Virus record (IMG/VR): IMGVR_UViG_2778261639_000001
Location: 1-5,354 of that record
Strand: one strand, 5' to 3'
DNA: 5,354 nt
DNA from: a virus
Taxonomy: Duplodnaviria > Heunggongvirae > Uroviricota > Caudoviricetes
Shown: positions 1-5,354 of the stretch, in pieces
Layout of the letters: the number at the start of each line of letters is the position of its first letter
How positions within the stretch are numbered: position 1 is the first letter of the stretch
Notes under the pieces: generated by a model
Seen by the model: the letters and a program-made list of their open reading frames with translations, nothing else
Database searches by the model: none
What the model was told of the DNA's origin: nothing
Program-made: the position numbers and the translations under genes

Positions 1-184
1 TAACATTGGCTTACAACTCATAACAAAAGCAATTCAATGCCGTCAAGAGGTTACAGGCTAAAAAAACTCTATTACATTGCAGTCAGCATGTTTACTACAC
101 AAATACAATTCAGAGCATAAAAACTACTCGGCGGCAGGTTATTGAGACTCATCAATGACATGTAAAAAACGCCCATTATTGGTG

Positions 185-216
185 TCAAGTTTCCCCAAAG
201 TTATTCAAAAAGTCAA
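185..216 (-). promoter_or_regulatory. Putative late promoter pR' / qut region downstream of Q
   Basis: Minus strand reads TTGACT (plus 211-216), a 17-nt spacer, then GAAACT (plus 188-193). The first ~60 nt after the Q stop match my recollection of lambda up to the -35 hexamer; the -10 and initial transcribed region differ. The -10 is a poor match to consensus, so exact promoter elements are uncertain. Confidence 0.4.
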
Positions 217-258
217 TATTATGCCGTTAATATGTTGCCATCCGTGGCAATCATGGCG

Positions 259-882
259 CTAACGTGTGATCGCATTCAAAATGTTGTCTGCGATTGACTC
301 TTCCTTGTGGCATTGCACAACCAGAGCGTCATACAGCGGCTTAACAGTGCGTGACCAGGTGGGTTGGGTAAGGTTTGGGATTAGCATCGTCACAGCGCGA
401 TATGCGGCGCTTGCTGGCATTCTTGAATAACCGACGCCTTTACATCTTCCGCACTCTTTCTCAGCAACTATCCCCCACTGCTCTGTTTTGGCTATATCAA
501 CCGCACGGCCTGTACCGTGGCAATCTCTGCATCTTGCGCCCGGCGTAGCGGCACTACGGCAATAATCCGCATAAGCGAATGTTGCGAGCACTTGCAGTAC
601 CTTTGCCTTAGTATTTCCTTCGAGCTTTGCCACACCACGGTATTTCCCCGATACCTTGTGTGCAAATTGCATCAGATAGTTGATAGCCTTTTGTTTGTCG
701 TTCTGGCTGAGTTCATGCTTACCGCAGAATGCAGCCATACCGAATCCGGCCTGTGATTGTGCCATCCCCATAGCAGCCATCACATCAGTACCGGAAAGAG
801 AGTCAGAAGCCGTGGCCCGTGGTGAGTCGCTCATCATCGGGCTTTTTGGCGAATGAAATTTAGCTACGCTTTCGAGTCTCAT
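259..882 (-). CDS. Q: Late-gene antiterminator Q (lambda type)
   Basis: 207-aa product is near-identical over its full length to lambda Q as I recall it (MRLESVAKFHSPKSPMMSDSPRATASDSLSG...). ATG at 880-882 overlaps the ninH TGA stop (ATGA); TAG stop at 259-261. Confidence 0.95.
   Translation of the reverse strand: MRLESVAKFHSPKSPMMSDSPRATASDSLSGTDVMAAMGMAQSQAGFGMAAFCGKHELSQNDKQKAINYLMQFAHKVSGKYRGVAKLEGNTKAKVLQVLATFAYADYCRSAATPGARCRDCHGTGRAVDIAKTEQWGIVAEKECGRCKGVGYSRMPASAAYRAVTMLIPNLTQPTWSRTVKPLYDALVVQCHKEESIADNILNAITR
582..614 (+). promoter_or_regulatory. paQ-like CII-dependent antisense promoter inside Q
   Basis: Plus strand has TTGC-GAGCAC-TTGC (582-595), a perfect TTGC-N6-TTGC CII-binding motif, then 13 nt, then TAGTAT (609-614) followed by TTCC. 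This is the same geometry as lambda pRE as I recall it (TTGCGTTTGTTTGC-13nt-AAGTATTTCC). It lies antisense within the Q coding region, as lambda paQ does. Confidence 0.55.
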
Positions 883-1067
883 CGTCTTCCCCTCTTGCCC
901 TGTTTGACCATCAGGACGCCGTTAACTATTACATGACGCTCGCCTTTGCTGTCTCGGTTGTACTTGAGCACTGTTCCTCTTGCGCAGGAAAGCATCCTTG
1001 CCACTTCGGTCTGATTGCCTCGTGTATGGATAAGAAGCTCTGGTATCGTTTGAATTGTGGCGTTCAT
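879..1067 (-). CDS. ninH: NinH (small HTH protein)
   Basis: 62-aa product shares the core GNQTEVAR..RGTV.KY....G..H.IVN.VLMV with lambda NinH as recalled. ATG at 1065-1067 overlaps the rusA TGA stop (ATGA). Confidence 0.85.
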   Translation of the reverse strand: MNATIQTIPELLIHTRGNQTEVARMLSCARGTVLKYNRDSKGERHVIVNGVLMVKQGKRGRR

Positions 1068-1426
1068 GCGTTCTCCAGTTCGGTGATTTTTATTCCAAGC
1101 CTTCCGCCTGGTACTTTCACACCACGAATTACGCGAATGTCATCGAATTGCTCGTCGTCTTCCGCAAATCCGGCGTGGATAAGGGAGTCGAGTAAACCTT
1201 TCAGGATGTTATCGAGGTCGCGGCGGCGGGAGTCTGGAACGTCTGCGATGACTTTGATGCGGAGTCGTGATTTGGTGAAAATATCTAACTTGAGTTGGTG
1301 GATGATTTGCTGAACGTCTTTTCGGTATTTCTGGCCTTTATCGCTGATGTAGTATTGGCTTCCCCGTCTTCGCCAGTAGGTATTCAACGACGGCGGGTAT
1401 GGAAGCACAAACTGATATTCGTTCAT
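1064..1426 (-). CDS. rusA: Holliday junction resolvase RusA
   Basis: 120-aa product has RusA hallmarks (LP.PPS.N.Y, RRRDLDN, GGRL) and the same length as E. coli RusA. ATG at 1424-1426 overlaps the upstream TGA stop (ATGA). Confidence 0.9.
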   Translation of the reverse strand: MNEYQFVLPYPPSLNTYWRRRGSQYYISDKGQKYRKDVQQIIHQLKLDIFTKSRLRIKVIADVPDSRRRDLDNILKGLLDSLIHAGFAEDDEQFDDIRVIRGVKVPGGRLGIKITELENA

Positions 1427-1713
1427 GACTTAATCTTCCCCTCCTTCAGCAGTATCGCCTGCGTCCTGATCACGCCTTCGAGGTGGTAAAGTCTGGCATC
1501 TTTGTTGTCGATAATCATTGTGCGTCGGTCGATTTCATCGTGACACGCGCTACAAGCCCATGCGCCGATCAGGTCGTCAGGCTTCATTCCCGTTCCGCAA
1601 ATTCCAGCCATCCGGTAATGTGCCAGAACTGTAGTTTCAGGATTGCCATTGCATACGCCGTAAATACGTACCTGGCATTCTCTGCCGCGCGCTTCTTTGC
1701 GTAGGTTAGCCAT
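1423..1713 (-). CDS. ybcO: YbcO-like DUF1364 protein (putative zinc-binding nuclease)
   Basis: 96-aa product resembles DLP12 YbcO as recalled (RGRECQVR..GVCNGNPET.VLAH.R..G.CGTG.KP.DLI...CS.CHDEIDRR), with conserved Cys/His ligands. ATG at 1711-1713 overlaps the upstream TAA stop (TAATG). Confidence 0.75.
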   Translation of the reverse strand: MANLRKEARGRECQVRIYGVCNGNPETTVLAHYRMAGICGTGMKPDDLIGAWACSACHDEIDRRTMIIDNKDARLYHLEGVIRTQAILLKEGKIKS

Positions 1714-1982
1714 TATGGTTCACTCCAGTAATTCTCAATTGCAGCAGCCATTCTCTGCATCCACTCAGCCAGCTTTAACGCAGCTTCTCTTTCAGAACCA
1801 CATTTAGGGAAATCCTTCATTTCCATGCTGGCCTTATATGTTCTGAATGCCAGGTCTCCGGTAATAACCAACTCCTGATCAAGCACCGAGCGTTTATTCC
1901 GGTGTTGAACGTAATAGACAGATTCAGTCCGCATTTCTTCTCTGTCTTTTTTGAAGGAAATAAGCTCAGAGAAATCACTCAT
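1713..1982 (-). CDS. Hypothetical protein (89 aa), no family assigned
   Basis: ORF embedded in the operon: ATG at 1980-1982 lies 2 nt after the ninF stop, and its TAA overlaps the start of the next gene. I could not assign a family from memory. Confidence 0.6.
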   Translation of the reverse strand: MSDFSELISFKKDREEMRTESVYYVQHRNKRSVLDQELVITGDLAFRTYKASMEMKDFPKCGSEREAALKLAEWMQRMAAAIENYWSEP

Positions 1983-2145
1983 CGTCTTCTTCCTCGTACA
2001 TTGAGCTATTCGGATCGCTCATCAGTTCTGCGCAGCAGTGCTCACATACGTGAACTTCCAGCACATGCAGCTTCTGACCGCAGTTAGCGCACGTTAAAGC
2101 TCGCTCGACGCTTTCTTGTTCGTAACTTCGATTTTGGTCAATCAC
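1975..2145 (-). CDS. ninF: NinF (Cys-rich small protein)
   Basis: Product matches lambda NinF core as recalled ([45 protein letters not shown]). There is no ATG in frame. I place the start at GTG 2143-2145, which overlaps the ninE TGA stop (GTGA) and has GAGGA 7 nt upstream; the ORF track's 2187 start is also a GTG but has no such support. Confidence 0.75.
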
Positions 2146-2324
2146 CTTGTTTTCCTCGCACGATTTCTTAGCCACCGGATATCCCACAGGTGAGCCGTGT
2201 AATTGAAGGTTTTTACGTCAGATTCTTTTGGGATTGGCTTGCGTTTATTTCTGTAGCGTTTCGTTGGAAGGTATTTGCAGTTTTCGCAGATGATGTCGGT
2301 GAAACTTCGTCGCTGTCGCCTCAT
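2142..2324 (-). CDS. ninE: NinE
   Basis: Product from the internal ATG (2322-2324) is [52 protein letters not shown]..., which matches lambda NinE as recalled. AGGAGG lies 6 nt upstream, and the ATG overlaps the methyltransferase TGA stop. The ORF-track start at 2414 is a TTG inside the methyltransferase gene and is rejected. Confidence 0.85.
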
Positions 2325-2848
2325 GCCGCCCTCCTGACGCCCTGCCCGATCGCCATCAATGCCGCTTTGGATACGGTAGTAAACATCCGTCGAGGACTGA
2401 TGAACGGTCGCCAAATCAGCAGCATGGAGCCTTTACTGTTTCCCTTCTTCTCCAGCCCTGTCGATGGTTCGATAAAATTAATCCGTCCATCAGTGATAAT
2501 GCGAACTTCGTCAACACTCTCCAGAGCCTTGCTGAACCATCCGACAGACATATCCTCTGGCACAAGCATCACTACCGTCTGTCGCTGTTGTATGCACTGC
2601 TCAGCGGCTTTTTCCACCCACGGCCTGATATTGCTGTACGGTGGGTTATTCCAGATTGCACCGTGGCTTATCCACTCAGAATTGAGTGCGTCGTCGGCCT
2701 CAGTTAGCCAGTGAGCGCACAGAGCATTTTTGTCGCTCGCAGCTGAATCCAGCCAGAATCCAAACTCAATATCCAGCGCATCAAAAAGCCAAAGCGGCGT
2801 TTGCCAGCAGTCCTTGTCGTGTGCTGGTGTATTTGATTTGATAGTCAT
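2321..2848 (-). CDS. Phage-type DNA N6-adenine methyltransferase (orphan MTase)
   Basis: 175-aa product has the N-terminal DCWQTP motif and the NPPY catalytic motif typical of the phage Dam N6-adenine MTase family. ATG at 2846-2848 overlaps the ninB TGA stop (ATGA). No restriction endonuclease partner is present in the window. Confidence 0.8.
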
Positions 2849-3291
2849 GCAGCCCTACCTTTTCGTTGTGACCATTCATACTCTCGCCGGGAGTCATCAC
2901 TCCACCGCACGTTGCGCTCTGAGCCGAACCAAAACATGATTTCGATAAGCTCAGTCATGCTGGCCTTTCGCATTTTGCTGGTACGCACGCCAAGCATGAC
3001 AACGCCACCATCGATACCAGGCACACTTCGTTGCTCCAGTTTTTTGGTCTTAAGCCACAGGGCAGTGAACAGGTCTTTCCAGTCCTCCGGCGCAAGTCTC
3101 TGTCCATGCCAAAGCACCTGACGTGATACGTCCTGCAATAACGCCCACATAAGGCGGTTTTGAGGATTGCTCCGCTTTGGTTCTTTAATGTGGACTTCGT
3201 GAGGTGACTTGTCGTCGATCGGAAGTGAGAGTATTGCGTCTATGGCGTTGTTTCTGATTGCTTCGTTGCGAAGCATGTATATTTGCTTCAT
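2845..3291 (-). CDS. ninB: NinB (Orf-family recombination mediator)
   Basis: Product resembles lambda NinB as recalled (...NAI.A......P.....RS..QNR..WA.L.DVSRQV.WHG..L....WK..FTA......MRK....ELIE....FG.ER.V.WSD......EW..R.G.RAA). I take the ATG at 3289-3291 as the start, with GAGGTG 5 nt upstream; the track's 3297 start is a GTG two codons upstream. Confidence 0.85.
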   Translation of the reverse strand: MKQIYMLRNEAIRNNAIDAILSLPIDDKSPHEVHIKEPKRSNPQNRLMWALLQDVSRQVLWHGQRLAPEDWKDLFTALWLKTKKLEQRSVPGIDGGVVMLGVRTSKMRKASMTELIEIMFWFGSERNVRWSDDSRREYEWSQRKGRAA

Positions 3292-3298
3292 TGTCACC

Positions 3299-3505
3299 TC
3301 AACTCACAAAACGCCACGCCATTTTTGCTACAGCGACAGGCGCAACACCGATAATCACCCACAGGAAAATGCTACCGAAAAGCACACCAACCAGGTCTTT
3401 ACCTTCGCCTACCAGCCGGACAAAACTGCTGGCAACCACAATGAACGTCGCCACCATCCACATAGCACCGAGAATCCTCAATGCAGAAAAAATCAACTCA
3501 ACCAC
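3299..3505 (-). CDS. Hypothetical small membrane protein (68 aa, two predicted TM helices)
   Basis: Start is GTG at 3503-3505, preceded by a strong SD (GGGGGAGAG, 6-nt spacer); an internal ATG at 3461-3463 is an alternative. Two hydrophobic stretches (LIFSALRILGAMWMVATFIVVASSFV and LVGVLFGSIFLWVIIGVAPVAVA). TGA stop is 7 nt before the ninB ATG. No family recognised, and the overlapping plus-strand ORFs are low-complexity. Confidence 0.45.
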   Translation of the reverse strand: MVELIFSALRILGAMWMVATFIVVASSFVRLVGEGKDLVGVLFGSIFLWVIIGVAPVAVAKMAWRFVS

Positions 3506-3520
3506 GATTTACTCTCCCCC

Positions 3521-3552
3521 AAATAAAAAGGCCTGCGATTACCAGCAGGCCT
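3521..3552 (-). terminator. tR2-like rho-independent terminator between ren and the nin region
   Basis: Minus strand reads AGGCCTGC-TGGTAATC-GCAGGCCT, a perfect 8-bp stem (6 GC pairs) with an 8-nt loop, followed by TTTTTATTT. It sits 26 nt downstream of the ren stop, the same position as lambda tR2 as I recall it. Confidence 0.55.
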
Positions 3553-3577
3553 GTTATTAGCTCAGTGATGTAGATGG

Positions 3578-3868
3578 TCATCTTTTAACTCCATATACCG
3601 CCAATACCCGTTTCATCGCGGCACTCTGGCGACACTCCTTAAAAATTAGGTTCGTGCTCATCTTTCCTTCCCGTTCTTCCTTGGTAGCAAACCGGTAATA
3701 CACCGTTCGCCAGACCTTACCTTCGATAACCAGAAGACCTGCCCGTGCCATTTTAGCCGCGGCCTGATTTATGCTGGTTACTGTTGCGCCTGTTAGCGCG
3801 GCAACGTCCGGCGCACAGAAGCTATTATGCGTCCCCAGGTAATGAATAATTGCCTCTTTGCCCGTCAT
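3578..3868 (-). CDS. ren: Ren
   Basis: 96-aa product is near-identical to lambda Ren as recalled (MTGKEAIIHYLGTHNSFCAPDVAALTGATVTSINQAAAKMARAG...). ATG at 3866-3868 overlaps the P TGA stop (ATGA). Confidence 0.9.
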   Translation of the reverse strand: MTGKEAIIHYLGTHNSFCAPDVAALTGATVTSINQAAAKMARAGLLVIEGKVWRTVYYRFATKEEREGKMSTNLIFKECRQSAAMKRVLAVYGVKR

Positions 3869-4566
3869 ACACTTGCTCCTTTCAGTCCGAACTTAGCTTT
3901 GAGTTCTGCGATCTTCGCCAGAGCCTGTGCACGATTTAGAGGTCTACCGCCCATGACAGGAAGTTGTTTTACTGGTTCAGGGATCGCCTCACCACGGTTA
4001 ATTCTCGCAGTCATATGGACAAGCTCATCTGCGGCCTTACGGCGTAATTCCGCATCAGTAAGCGCATTGGCCCGCATGTTCTGATACAGGTTGGTAACCA
4101 GCCAGTAGTGCGCGTTTGATTTCCACGGATAAGACTCCGCATCCGGATACAGGCCTCGCTTCCGGCAATACTCGTAAACCATATCAACCAGCTCGCTGAC
4201 GTTTGGCAGTCCGGCGATAACGGATGCTTCTTCCCGGCACCATGCAACAAACTGCCCGGGTGATGGCAGGAATGGTCGATTCTGCCGACGGGCTACGCGC
4301 ATTCCTGCGTTAACCTGTTCCATTGTGGTGATCCCGTTTTCCCGGAAAGCCAGAACCCACTGGCGGCGGATTTCGTTCAGTTCGTTCTGGTCACGGTTAG
4401 CCAGGCTCGCCGGGAAAGTTGCCAGTAACTGGCTGAACACACCGTTGATGATCTGCGCTACCTGTTGTACCTGCGGCTTTTCGTCGTACTGTTCCGGCAT
4501 GTTGTTGGCGATCCGACGCATCTGCTCACGGTCAAAGTTAACCATCTGTGCGGCGATGTTTTTCAT
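3865..4566 (-). CDS. P: Replication protein P (DnaB helicase loader)
   Basis: 233-aa product is near-identical to lambda P as recalled (MKNIAAQMVNFDREQMRRIANNMPEQYDEKPQVQQVAQIINGVFSQLLATFPASLANRDQNELNEIRRQW...). ATG at 4564-4566 overlaps the O TGA stop (ATGA). Confidence 0.95.
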   Translation of the reverse strand: MKNIAAQMVNFDREQMRRIANNMPEQYDEKPQVQQVAQIINGVFSQLLATFPASLANRDQNELNEIRRQWVLAFRENGITTMEQVNAGMRVARRQNRPFLPSPGQFVAWCREEASVIAGLPNVSELVDMVYEYCRKRGLYPDAESYPWKSNAHYWLVTNLYQNMRANALTDAELRRKAADELVHMTARINRGEAIPEPVKQLPVMGGRPLNRAQALAKIAELKAKFGLKGASV

Positions 4567-5277
4567 AAATCCACCCCGTAAATCCAGTCAGTGTTTGTCA
4601 GGTCGAGTTTTGGTTTGCTGGCTGTCACGCCTGCCTGTTGCTTGTTACGGTTGATTTCGAGCTGGGTCCACTTGTCGCGGAGTTTGGCCGGACTCAGCAC
4701 GTTACCGGACCAGAAGTTGTCCTGGCAGGCCCAGCGGAAAAGCACACACATATCGCGGTGGTTACGTCCGTCACGTTCACGCATCAGGCGGATATCGTTA
4801 GCCCACCCTGCAAAATTCGGTTTTCTGGCTGATGGTGCGATGGTCTTCACCATGTCAAACATCCACTCTGCGGCGGTCAGGTCTTCTGCTGTTCCCCACT
4901 TGCTGCCGCTCTGAATTGCAGCATCCGGTTTAACCACAGAAAGATCGTTTTCTGGCTGGTCAGAGGATTCGCCAGAATTCTCGGACGAATAATCTTTTCT
5001 TTTTTCTTTTGTAATAGTGTCTTTTGTGTCCCCCTGTTTTGAGGGATAGCAATCCCCTAATTTGAGGGATGTTTTATCCCTCGTTTTAGGGGATTTTCCC
5101 TCGTTTTGAGGGATGTCCCTCATTTTAGGGGAACCTCCCTCGTTTTGAGGGATGCACCATTCTGAGATGTTTTTATTTGGTCCAAACATGCCGCCTTGCT
5201 GCTTGATAATATTCATTCTGACGAGTTCTAACTTGGCTTCATTGCACCGTTTGACAGGTAACTTTGTAATCTCGCTA
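4563..5277 (-). pseudogene. O: Replication initiator O, 3' portion; 5' part separated by an IS insertion
   Basis: Minus-strand frame encodes ...SEITKLPVKRCNEAKLELVRMNIIKQQGGMFGPNKNISEWC...DNFWSGNVLSPAKLRDKWTQLEINRNKQQAGVTASKPKLDLTNTDWIYGVDL, matching lambda O from about residue 76 onward as recalled. Homology stops at 5277, where IS sequence begins. The frame stays open into the IS but encodes a hydrophobic, non-O peptide. The ORF-track start at 5216 is only an internal Met. Confidence 0.85.
5029..5153. repeat. ori-lambda iterons (six O-binding repeats) within the O coding region
   Basis: Six ~17-nt palindromic repeats with consensus TCCCTCGTTTTGAGGGA start at plus 5029, 5053, 5077, 5097, 5116 and 5136. 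They are flanked at 4986-5028 by an AT-rich stretch (AATAATCTTTTCTTTTTTCTTTTGTAATAGTG) that fits the DNA-unwinding element. Lambda has four iterons as I recall. Confidence 0.85.
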
Positions 5278-5354
5278 TGAACCGCCCCGGGAATCCTGGA
5301 GACTAAACTCCCTGAGAAAGAGGTAAACAGAATGACTAAAAATACTCGTTTTTC
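5278..5354 (+). mobile_element. Left end of IS629/IS1203-like insertion sequence (IS3 family), truncated by the window edge
   Basis: TGAACCGCCCCGGGAATCCTGGAGACTAAACTCCCTGAGAAAGAGGTAAACAGAATGACTAAAAATACTCG matches the left inverted repeat and orfA start of IS629-type elements as I recall them. It begins abruptly where O homology ends. Confidence 0.8.
5332..5354 (+). CDS. IS3-family transposase OrfA, N-terminal fragment only
   Basis: ATG at 5332-5334 is preceded by AAGAGG and encodes MTKNTRF..., the recalled N-terminus of IS629/IS1203 OrfA. The CDS continues beyond the window. Confidence 0.7.

Follow-up and report, generated by a model that had tools for sequence, protein, structure and literature searches.

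Among the described systems closest to the locus considered here are the nin genes of lambda and P22 (ninA-ninI, ninX, ninY and ninZ), small genes of one operon with overlapping starts and stops, and, closer still, gp51 of phage mEp235 (YP_007111627). The subject of the present analysis is an 89-codon open reading frame (ORF) on the minus strand of a 5,354-nucleotide (nt) stretch of Caudoviricetes DNA (IMG/VR record IMGVR_UViG_2778261639_000001, positions 1 to 5,354; "the window" below denotes this whole stretch). The ORF shares with the nin genes the operon, the small size and the overlapping style of starts and stops; lambda itself has no gene at its position. The ORF and mEp235 gp51 are one and the same gene, with 99.3% nt identity, the same length, the same position and the same overlaps with its neighbours (8 nt and 1 nt), so that the feature as such is already known and is catalogued in PHROG 1258, with an uncharacterised function. 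Regions nearly identical to the window are already annotated in mEp235 and in phiv205-1, where the copy of the gene is 100% identical in nt; copies in ECP1, SPN9CC, 118970_sal4 and in Escherichia coli prophages, annotated as genes for hypothetical proteins, are 99-100% identical and occupy the same place between ninF and a gene for a YbcO-type HNH protein. The mEp235-type copies differ from the ORF only in the surrounding modules, which vary from phage to phage.

More distant described relatives are N15 gp44, phiKO2 gp43 and HK225 gp58, which have in common with the ORF the membership in PHROG 1258, the size, the accessory setting in an early operon and the coupling to the next gene. Their homology to the ORF protein extends over its entire length; N15 gp44 is 35% identical to it over 85 amino acids (aa) (BLASTP E=1e-17). 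Alignments and per-column conservation show that the ORF protein fits both the length of the N15 gp44 family (about 90-110 aa) and its signature, TLEQ...DFP...E(A/S)xLKLA(D/E)W(L/M)xR(L/M)xxAIE followed by a W-S-x-P C-terminus. The genomic place of N15 gp44 is different, after a Q-like antiterminator gene, an exonuclease gene and two genes of unknown function; other members of its family follow Ead/Ea22-like genes in many lambdoid prophages or reside in P1-like phage-plasmids, and the downstream partner is a gp45-like protein of unknown function, unlike the YbcO or NinG that follows the ORF. No function is recorded for any annotated copy of the ORF, nor for the N15, phiKO2 and HK225 relatives, and we found no published study of any family member when searching by identifiers, by mEp235 and N15 gp44, by the nin region combined with anti-defence, and in the accessory-gene screen of Silas et al. 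What the present analysis adds is the link between the nin-region gene, its paralogues in the ea region and N15 gp44, the exact joints of the cassette together with a ribosome-binding site for the downstream gene embedded in it, and a high-confidence fold model for which there is no solved relative.

Coding status and distribution of the family

The ORF is present as the original prediction had given it, from ATG to TAA at positions 1713-1982; the prediction had named no strand, which is minus. By its length alone, the ORF could be a chance frame, since ORFs of 73-174 codons arise by chance on the non-coding strand of the window. It is the conservation of the protein that places the ORF above chance. 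The protein matches the PHROG 1258 hidden Markov model (HMM) with E=4.7e-38 and 130 bits, residues 2-89 aligning with positions 9-97 of the 97 in the profile, and 54 out of 54 diverse relatives tested match the same profile. A word-seeded search of 5.8 billion proteins yielded 32 homologues, and an exhaustive profile search of 1.84 billion representatives yielded 67 representative family members. Homologues at 59-73% identity occur in six other enterobacterial genera, those at 62-73% including proteins from Rahnella, Yokenella, Enterobacter, Cronobacter and Cedecea. In cross-genus codon-aligned comparisons, nonsynonymous divergence (pN 0.14-0.35) is far below synonymous divergence (pS 0.64-0.97); synonymous sites are therefore saturated, and dN/dS is 0.07-0.28 wherever dS can be estimated. 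The frame is kept at full length across the genera.

Thus, the ORF is almost certainly a genuine protein-coding accessory gene, a cassette in the nin operon of temperate enterobacterial phages, and the earlier expectation that it is translated is supported by the PHROG 1258 match, the homologues, the purifying selection and the Shine-Dalgarno site described below. One could still think of a chance ORF or a decaying remnant without function, given that ORFs of similar length arise on the other strand of the window and that frameshifts or truncations affect a few of the database copies (P0010, P0021, P0024 and P0027). Strong purifying selection, full-length conservation over genera and phage types, conserved translation signals and a very confident, co-evolution-supported fold all argue against this interpretation, which is effectively refuted by the selection data and the fold model and to which we give hardly any credence.

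The gene is found in 148 of the 5426 complete E. coli genomes (2.7%), under the PGAP label "hypothetical protein", and some of these genomes have copies in several prophages. Searches with tblastn connect mEp235 gp51 with N15 gp44, phiKO2 gp43 and HK225 gp58, and further with genes of Proteus and Providencia phages and of the P1-like phage-plasmids RCS47 and SJ46. Another subfamily shares about 40% identity with the ORF and inhabits the early-left accessory region of many lambdoid prophages (L093-L172; for example, L096 3965-4279 and L119 3968-4267), where it usually comes after an Ead/Ea22-like gene (a cluster of 48; PF13935) and before a gene for a gp45-like protein (a cluster of 66; PHROGs 60, 660 and 5117, all of unknown function). 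In a Plesiomonas phage, the family member sits upstream of ninB, between a Dam gene and a PHROG 757 methyltransferase gene. A survey of 256 family loci, two genes on each side, gave 236 sequence clusters of neighbours and no constant partner: the 148 clusters that were scanned match 66 different Pfam families, none of which dominates. These include NinG, YbcO, Dam, C-5 methylase, Rha, ANT, NinX, Q and lambda P, as well as Mu GemA/DUF3164 and P2 GPA. The constants of the family are the early accessory region of a temperate phage, the co-orientation and coupling with the neighbours, and an enterobacterial host.

Several observations on individual database entries can be added. The phiv205-1 copy (MN340231.1; L002 4001-4270) carries the label "portal protein", as do some Proteus phage records; for an 89-aa early gene, this label is a propagated misannotation, in phiv205-1 by way of a PHASTER-style note. 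A scan of species-representative genomes gave only 5 loci, two of which are phage contigs of E. coli that were assigned to metagenome-assembled genomes (MAGs) of Bacillota and Collinsella by mis-binning: L086 (JAEZIN010000021.1, "Bacillota bacterium" MAG) and L087 (JAIHTM010000136.1, "Collinsella sp." MAG) hold a 100% identical copy in a typical E. coli lambdoid nin region, and the binning is very probably contamination. Viral scans with the single distant proteins P0064 and P0074 gave no matches. Fusion proteins were considered as functional hints and set aside, since they seem to be chimeras of adjacent genes that arose by read-through or recombination: P0043 joins a truncated Rv2179c-like exonuclease to the family domain, P0044 joins the family domain to the downstream gp45-like gene, and P0057 and P0088 combine an Ead/Ea22 N-terminus with only the last strand and helix of the family domain. 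Such chimeras suggest that recombination or read-through occurs within the gene cluster and that the breakpoint lies immediately ahead of the DFP motif.

The exchange slot between ninF and the junction-nuclease genes

The gene, its immediate neighbours and the signals at its ends are as follows.

1975..2145, minus strand: ninF, 56 codons (Pfam NinF PF05810, E=2e-12; mEp235 annotation)
1989..1995, minus strand: Shine-Dalgarno-like GAGGAAG, 7-13 nt 5' of the ATG of the ORF, within the acidic C-terminal codons of ninF
1975..1982, minus strand: 8-nt overlap of ninF and the ORF, ATGAGTGA (gATGAGTGA), the start codon of the ORF lying inside the last codons and stop of ninF; 5' joint of the cassette
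1713..1982, minus strand: the 89-codon ORF, ATG to TAA (ORF list)
1723..1726, minus strand: GGAG in codons W86-S87, 10-13 nt 5' of the ybcO ATG; Shine-Dalgarno site for ybcO
1706..1715, minus strand: 3' joint of the cassette, TAATGGCTAA, the stop of the ORF overlapping the next ATG by 1 nt
1423..1713, minus strand: ybcO (DUF1364), putative HNH-type nuclease gene (Pfam YbcO PF07102, E=4e-44; PHROG 131)

The placement of the ORF between ninF and the DUF1364 gene was correctly recognized in the original prediction, as Pfam matches of both neighbours confirm, and so was the overlap of its TAA with the next ATG (minus strand CCA TAA TGG, with TAATG at 1711-1715). The start of the ORF does not, as was claimed, follow the ninF stop at a distance of 2 nt: the ATG occupies 1982-1980 and the ninF TGA 1977-1975, so that the two genes overlap by 8 nt. 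The end of ninF reads GAC GAT GAG TGA and contains the ATG of the ORF, and the mEp235 record annotates the same overlap (ninF 3838-4008, gp51 4001-4270).

The proposal that this is a site where lambdoid phages swap accessory genes is vindicated by the comparison of loci, in which the same joints hold other cassettes in HK97 and mEp043 and none in lambda. The upstream gene is ninF in 83 of the 88 nin-type loci; the downstream gene is ybcO in 62 of the 88, followed by rusA, and ninG in 23. The ORF allele is 98-100% identical in nt whether ninG or ybcO comes next, and the upstream ninF alleles show 75-99% identity. In comparisons with the ninG-type loci, homology ends 7 nt past the stop of the ORF (TGGCTAA), and in a locus with a DnaB-type helicase gene upstream, homology starts 7 nt before the ATG. 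The HK97 roi gene uses the same 5' joint (ATGAATGA), starting in ...GAAGACGATGAATGA and ending in TAATGGCTAA, and gp60 of mEp043, an unrelated protein of 70 aa, does so as well (ATGAGTGA), with its start in ...GACGATGAGTGA and its end in TAAATGGCTAA. The ATG of the occupants of the slot thus falls within ...GAAGACGATGA(A/G)TGA, and their 3' end is TAATGGCTAA or TAAATGGCTAA. In lambda, the slot is empty: the two linkers are fused (GAAGATGATGGCTAA) and ninF leads directly into ninG. The linkers shared by the slot, that is, ninF followed by a variable gene and then by ybcO or ninG, can be written as 5' GAGGAAGAAGACG|ATGA(G/A)TGA and 3' TAATGGCTAA (window 1975-1995 and 1706-1715; L175, L176 and L177). 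The ORF accordingly is a discrete cassette in an exchange slot between ninF and the junction-nuclease module, and the locus offers a clean example of lambdoid gene exchange in which the joints of the cassette coincide with overlapping stop and start signals. The other occupants have no detectable relationship to the ORF: Roi (HK97 gp65 and HK022 Roi; 241 aa) shows no sequence similarity (BLASTP E=3.6) and mEp043 gp60 gives no BLASTP alignment, and the common slot does not imply a common function.

The signals for translation are part of this arrangement. Equivalents of the Shine-Dalgarno-like sequence upstream of the ORF (GGAGG, GAGGAG or AAGGAG) are found at the same spacing in homologues from other genera. 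At the other end, the conserved C-terminal codons of the family, W-S-x-P-stop (CTGGAGnnnCCATAATG or CCATGA), hold GGAG and the start codon of the next gene, and therefore the cassette supplies the initiation signals for the gene downstream. The pattern CTGGAG-nnn-CCATAATG or CCATGA is retained in both nin-region and ea-region homologues regardless of which gene follows (window site 1716-1727, minus strand; the 3' ends of homologues in L003, L005, L088-L090, L096 and L119 show the same arrangement), such that the outgoing cassette gene bears the ribosome-binding site of whichever gene comes next. The apparent conservation of the protein at its extreme C-terminus may be due in part to this second role.

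The operon as a whole is chained by overlaps, namely ATGA, GTGA, ATGAGTGA, TAATG and then ATGA three times, according to the coordinates and the mEp235 annotation. A scan of positions 1300-2500, which admitted promoter spacers of 16-18 nt, detected no promoter-like and no terminator-like sites, and no Rfam families were found in the window; with no promoter, terminator or Rfam element nearby, the ORF would therefore be expressed within the nin transcript. Because neither a promoter nor a terminator of its own was found and the frame is chained to its neighbours, the product would be made together with the delayed-early genes in lytic growth or induction. If the locus follows the established biology of lambda, transcription would proceed from pR after N antitermination, and the protein would be present only during lytic growth or induction; translation would be coupled to that of ninF, and ribosomes would pass from the ORF on to ybcO. 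The mEp235 record annotates a sigma-70-like promoter, TTGAGA-15 nt-CATAAT, in the 3' end of the ORF (window 1712-1738, minus strand; L001 4245-4271), which our scan for spacers of 16-18 nt did not report; its -10 element stops one base short of the G in the ybcO start codon, and a role in transcribing ybcO is therefore improbable.

Predicted fold and possible function

The protein of 89 aa has a mass of 10.5 kDa, a pI of 5.4 and a GRAVY score of -0.70, and neither its sequence nor its model includes a membrane-like hydrophobic segment; the product is small, soluble and mildly acidic. AlphaFold2 with a 54-sequence alignment gave a confident model (pLDDT 95.6, pTM 0.80; with a 13-sequence alignment, pLDDT 79) that consists of the following elements.

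1821..1979, minus strand: four-stranded antiparallel beta-meander, codons 2-54 (modelled strands 2-13, 18-28, 33-43 and 48-54)
1806..1814, minus strand: D-F-P motif before the helix, codons 57-59 (F58 in 91% and P59 in 87% of 54 family representatives)
1722..1793, minus strand: C-terminal amphipathic helix, codons 64-87 (24 residues), the most conserved part of the protein

The meander bears the conserved H27-N-N...T32-x-L-E-Q36-x-L and W/Y49-x-A51, and the signature of the helix is E66-A-A-L-K70-L-A-(D/E)73-W74-(L/M)-x-R77-(L/M)-x-x-A81-I82. Among members that are only about 30% identical, conservation is concentrated in the beta2-beta3 hairpin and beta3 (H27, N29, T32, L34, E35, Q36 and L38), in W/Y49-x-A51 of beta4, in D57-F58-P59 and in the helix. 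Judging from the spacing of its residues (i/i+3/i+4), the hydrophobic stripe A67, L71, W74/M75, M78 and A81/I82 presumably packs on the sheet, and E66, K70, D/E73 and R77 would form an exposed charged ridge.

The original prediction could assign the ORF neither to a lambda nin gene nor to any family. The former statement holds: the protein matches no Pfam family at E<=1, including NinB, NinE, NinF, NinG, NinH and NinX, and its neighbours match theirs. The latter holds in part, in that scans of Pfam, NCBIfam, PADLOC-DB 2.0 and the PDB produced no accepted match (Pfam and PADLOC-DB 2.0: no families at E<=1), and has to be amended in that the protein belongs to PHROG 1258, of unknown function. 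The profile-HMM search, one of the checks suggested at the outset along with structure prediction and the survey of neighbours, thus returned the full-length PHROG 1258 match and no characterised family, and the ORF stands outside the named nin families, Roi and the PADLOC defence families. Two faint hits were dismissed as noise: NCBIfam NF008256 (E=0.016, 15 bits against a cut-off of 236 bits), which other family members do not reproduce, and TIGR01881 Cmr5, matched by 4 of the 54 members at E of at least 0.004. Searches of PDB sequences with the single sequence and with the 54-sequence profile found only one match of 24 residues (E=0.43). The structural search gave weak matches, of which the recurring ones are cystatin/monellin-like and NTF2-like alpha+beta rolls and polo-box-like domains of a beta-sheet plus a helix; the likeness consists in an antiparallel sheet cradling one long helix.

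Taken as a whole, the observations appear to be explained best, and we consider it somewhat probable, by a genuine cassette gene of the early operon whose product may bind a host factor. The functional part of this proposal, an early host-takeover or counter-defence factor that binds a component of the host, is more tentative and, in our estimation, less likely than not. Early, accessory, recombination-prone regions of phage genomes usually house counter-defence and host-takeover genes, and the family is always found in regions of this kind. Most likely, the protein would bind a macromolecule, without catalysis, and the contacts would be made by polar residues that are invariant near the helix and the beta2-beta3 hairpin, putatively H27, N29, T32, Q36, D57, E66, K70, D/E73 and R77; a binding role is suggested because no signature of a catalytic family was found and because the same allele works beside interchangeable phage genes. 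The target might be a component of the host instead of the partner of a particular phage protein, given that the phage neighbours vary completely and the host clade, Enterobacterales, is constant. Several considerations weigh against this interpretation. The argument for a host target proceeds purely by elimination; the invariant H27, N29, E35, Q36, D57, K70 and R77 would be just as compatible with a small active site or with a pocket for a ligand; no convincing solved structural relative was found, and an annotated relative may have been missed; and members of the close nin-type subfamily almost always lie directly upstream of a gene for a structure-specific nuclease, a position that fits a phage-internal role in recombination equally well.

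This last point leads to the possibility that the ORF product is an accessory subunit or regulator of the adjacent nuclease (YbcO-RusA or NinG/Rap), modulating junction cleavage or recombination and kept at a fixed ratio to the nuclease through translational coupling. The next gene is indeed ybcO or ninG in 85 of the 88 nin-type loci, always with the TAATG or ATGA overlap and the Shine-Dalgarno sequence inside the ORF; a RusA-like gene follows a distant member in L162, HNH genes precede members in L089 and L126, and the nin region is rich in recombination functions (NinB, RusA and NinG). However, an identical allele serves two unrelated nucleases (BLASTP E=3.9) without co-variation, lambda, P22 and HK97 use NinG or YbcO without the ORF, and a nuclease neighbour is missing from the ea-region subfamily, from N15 gp44 and from many further members, so that we regard a nuclease partner as unlikely. 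An argument that would treat YbcO and NinG as one conserved type of partner was not used, as BLASTP found no similarity between them. Marginally less likely, in our estimation, is a helper in restriction alleviation or methylation that would work with orphan methyltransferases of the phage or with modification enzymes of the host to protect phage DNA. A Dam gene lies two genes upstream of the ORF in the window, the Plesiomonas locus has Dam directly upstream and the PHROG 757 methyltransferase directly downstream, phiKO2 gp42 is a DNA methyltransferase, and C-5 and other methylase-like ORFs lie upstream in L142, L125 and L162; yet methylase genes are common in such early regions anyway, in the list of the 25 most frequent Pfam families, methylases account for only 3 of the 148 neighbour clusters, many loci that carry the ORF have no Dam gene, and no similarity to Pfam anti-restriction families was found.

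The sporadic occurrence of the gene (2.7% of complete E. coli genomes, at times in several prophages of one genome), its location in a swap slot and the promoter-like site that the mEp235 authors annotated at its 3' end would all suit a moron that is expressed from the prophage and aids the lysogen by superinfection exclusion or defence. No signals of its own were found for the ORF, which therefore does not qualify as a classical moron: it overlaps both neighbours, the scan detected neither promoter nor terminator, and the site annotated in mEp235, with its 15-nt spacer and its position at the 3' end, could not drive the ORF. Moreover, the ORF is overlap-chained inside the operon containing the nin genes, which in lambda is repressed in lysogens, and no PADLOC match was found; a moron is therefore quite improbable in any form. 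We would rank no higher a small enzyme or a sponge that binds a small molecule, such as a signalling nucleotide, via the conserved polar cluster, even though H27, N29, T32, E35, Q36, D57, E66, K70, D/E73 and R77 are invariant or nearly so at about 30% identity and NTF2-like and cystatin-like rolls, folds that frequently accommodate ligands, are among the weak structural neighbours.

Returning to the binder of a host factor, a more specific version of this proposal can be entertained as a speculation: the family might be an unrecognised class of early inhibitors or modulators with a new alpha+beta fold, aimed at a single conserved factor of enterobacteria; lambdoid, N15-, P1-, Mu- and P2-like temperate phages would carry it as a self-contained cassette with translational coupling. 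If so, the target could be a protein of defence or DNA repair, for example, or a molecule of immune signalling. Small, under strong purifying selection and present in several unrelated types of temperate enterobacterial phages, the gene is a well-defined candidate for functional study.

The surrounding operon

The window covers an early-right lambdoid region, with replication and nin genes, and is read throughout on the minus strand. In the order of transcription, and apart from ninF, the ORF and ybcO, which are listed above, it contains the following genes.

Upstream of P, minus strand: 3' part of O, first in the order of transcription
3865-4566, minus strand: P (ORF list)
3578-3868, minus strand: ren (ORF list)
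3299-3505, minus strand: 68-codon hydrophobic ORF between ren and ninB
2845-3297, minus strand: ninB (ORF list)
2321-2848, minus strand: Dam-type methyltransferase gene (Pfam Dam, E=8e-65)
ATG at 2324, end at 2142, minus strand: ninE (Pfam NinE, E=7e-41)
1064-1426, minus strand: rusA (Pfam RusA, E=5e-16)
879-1067, minus strand: ninH (ORF list)
259-882, minus strand: Q (ORF list)

The program-listed ORFs for ninE (TTG 2414) and ninF (GTG 2187) are over-extended. The likely real start of ninE is the ATG at 2324, in an ATGA overlap with the stop of the Dam gene, and that of ninF is the GTG at 2145, in a GTGA overlap with the stop of ninE; both agree with the mEp235 annotation. The product of the 68-codon ORF at 3299-3505 is very hydrophobic, with two likely membrane helices, and is found at 44-100% identity in many related loci. 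Comparison of L001-L088 indicates that the Dam-type methyltransferase gene at 2321-2848 is itself a cassette that is present or absent among otherwise nearly identical nin regions; NinX-like genes and the allele types of ninB (about 45% versus 93-100% identity) vary likewise, which amounts to gene-by-gene mosaicism of the operon.

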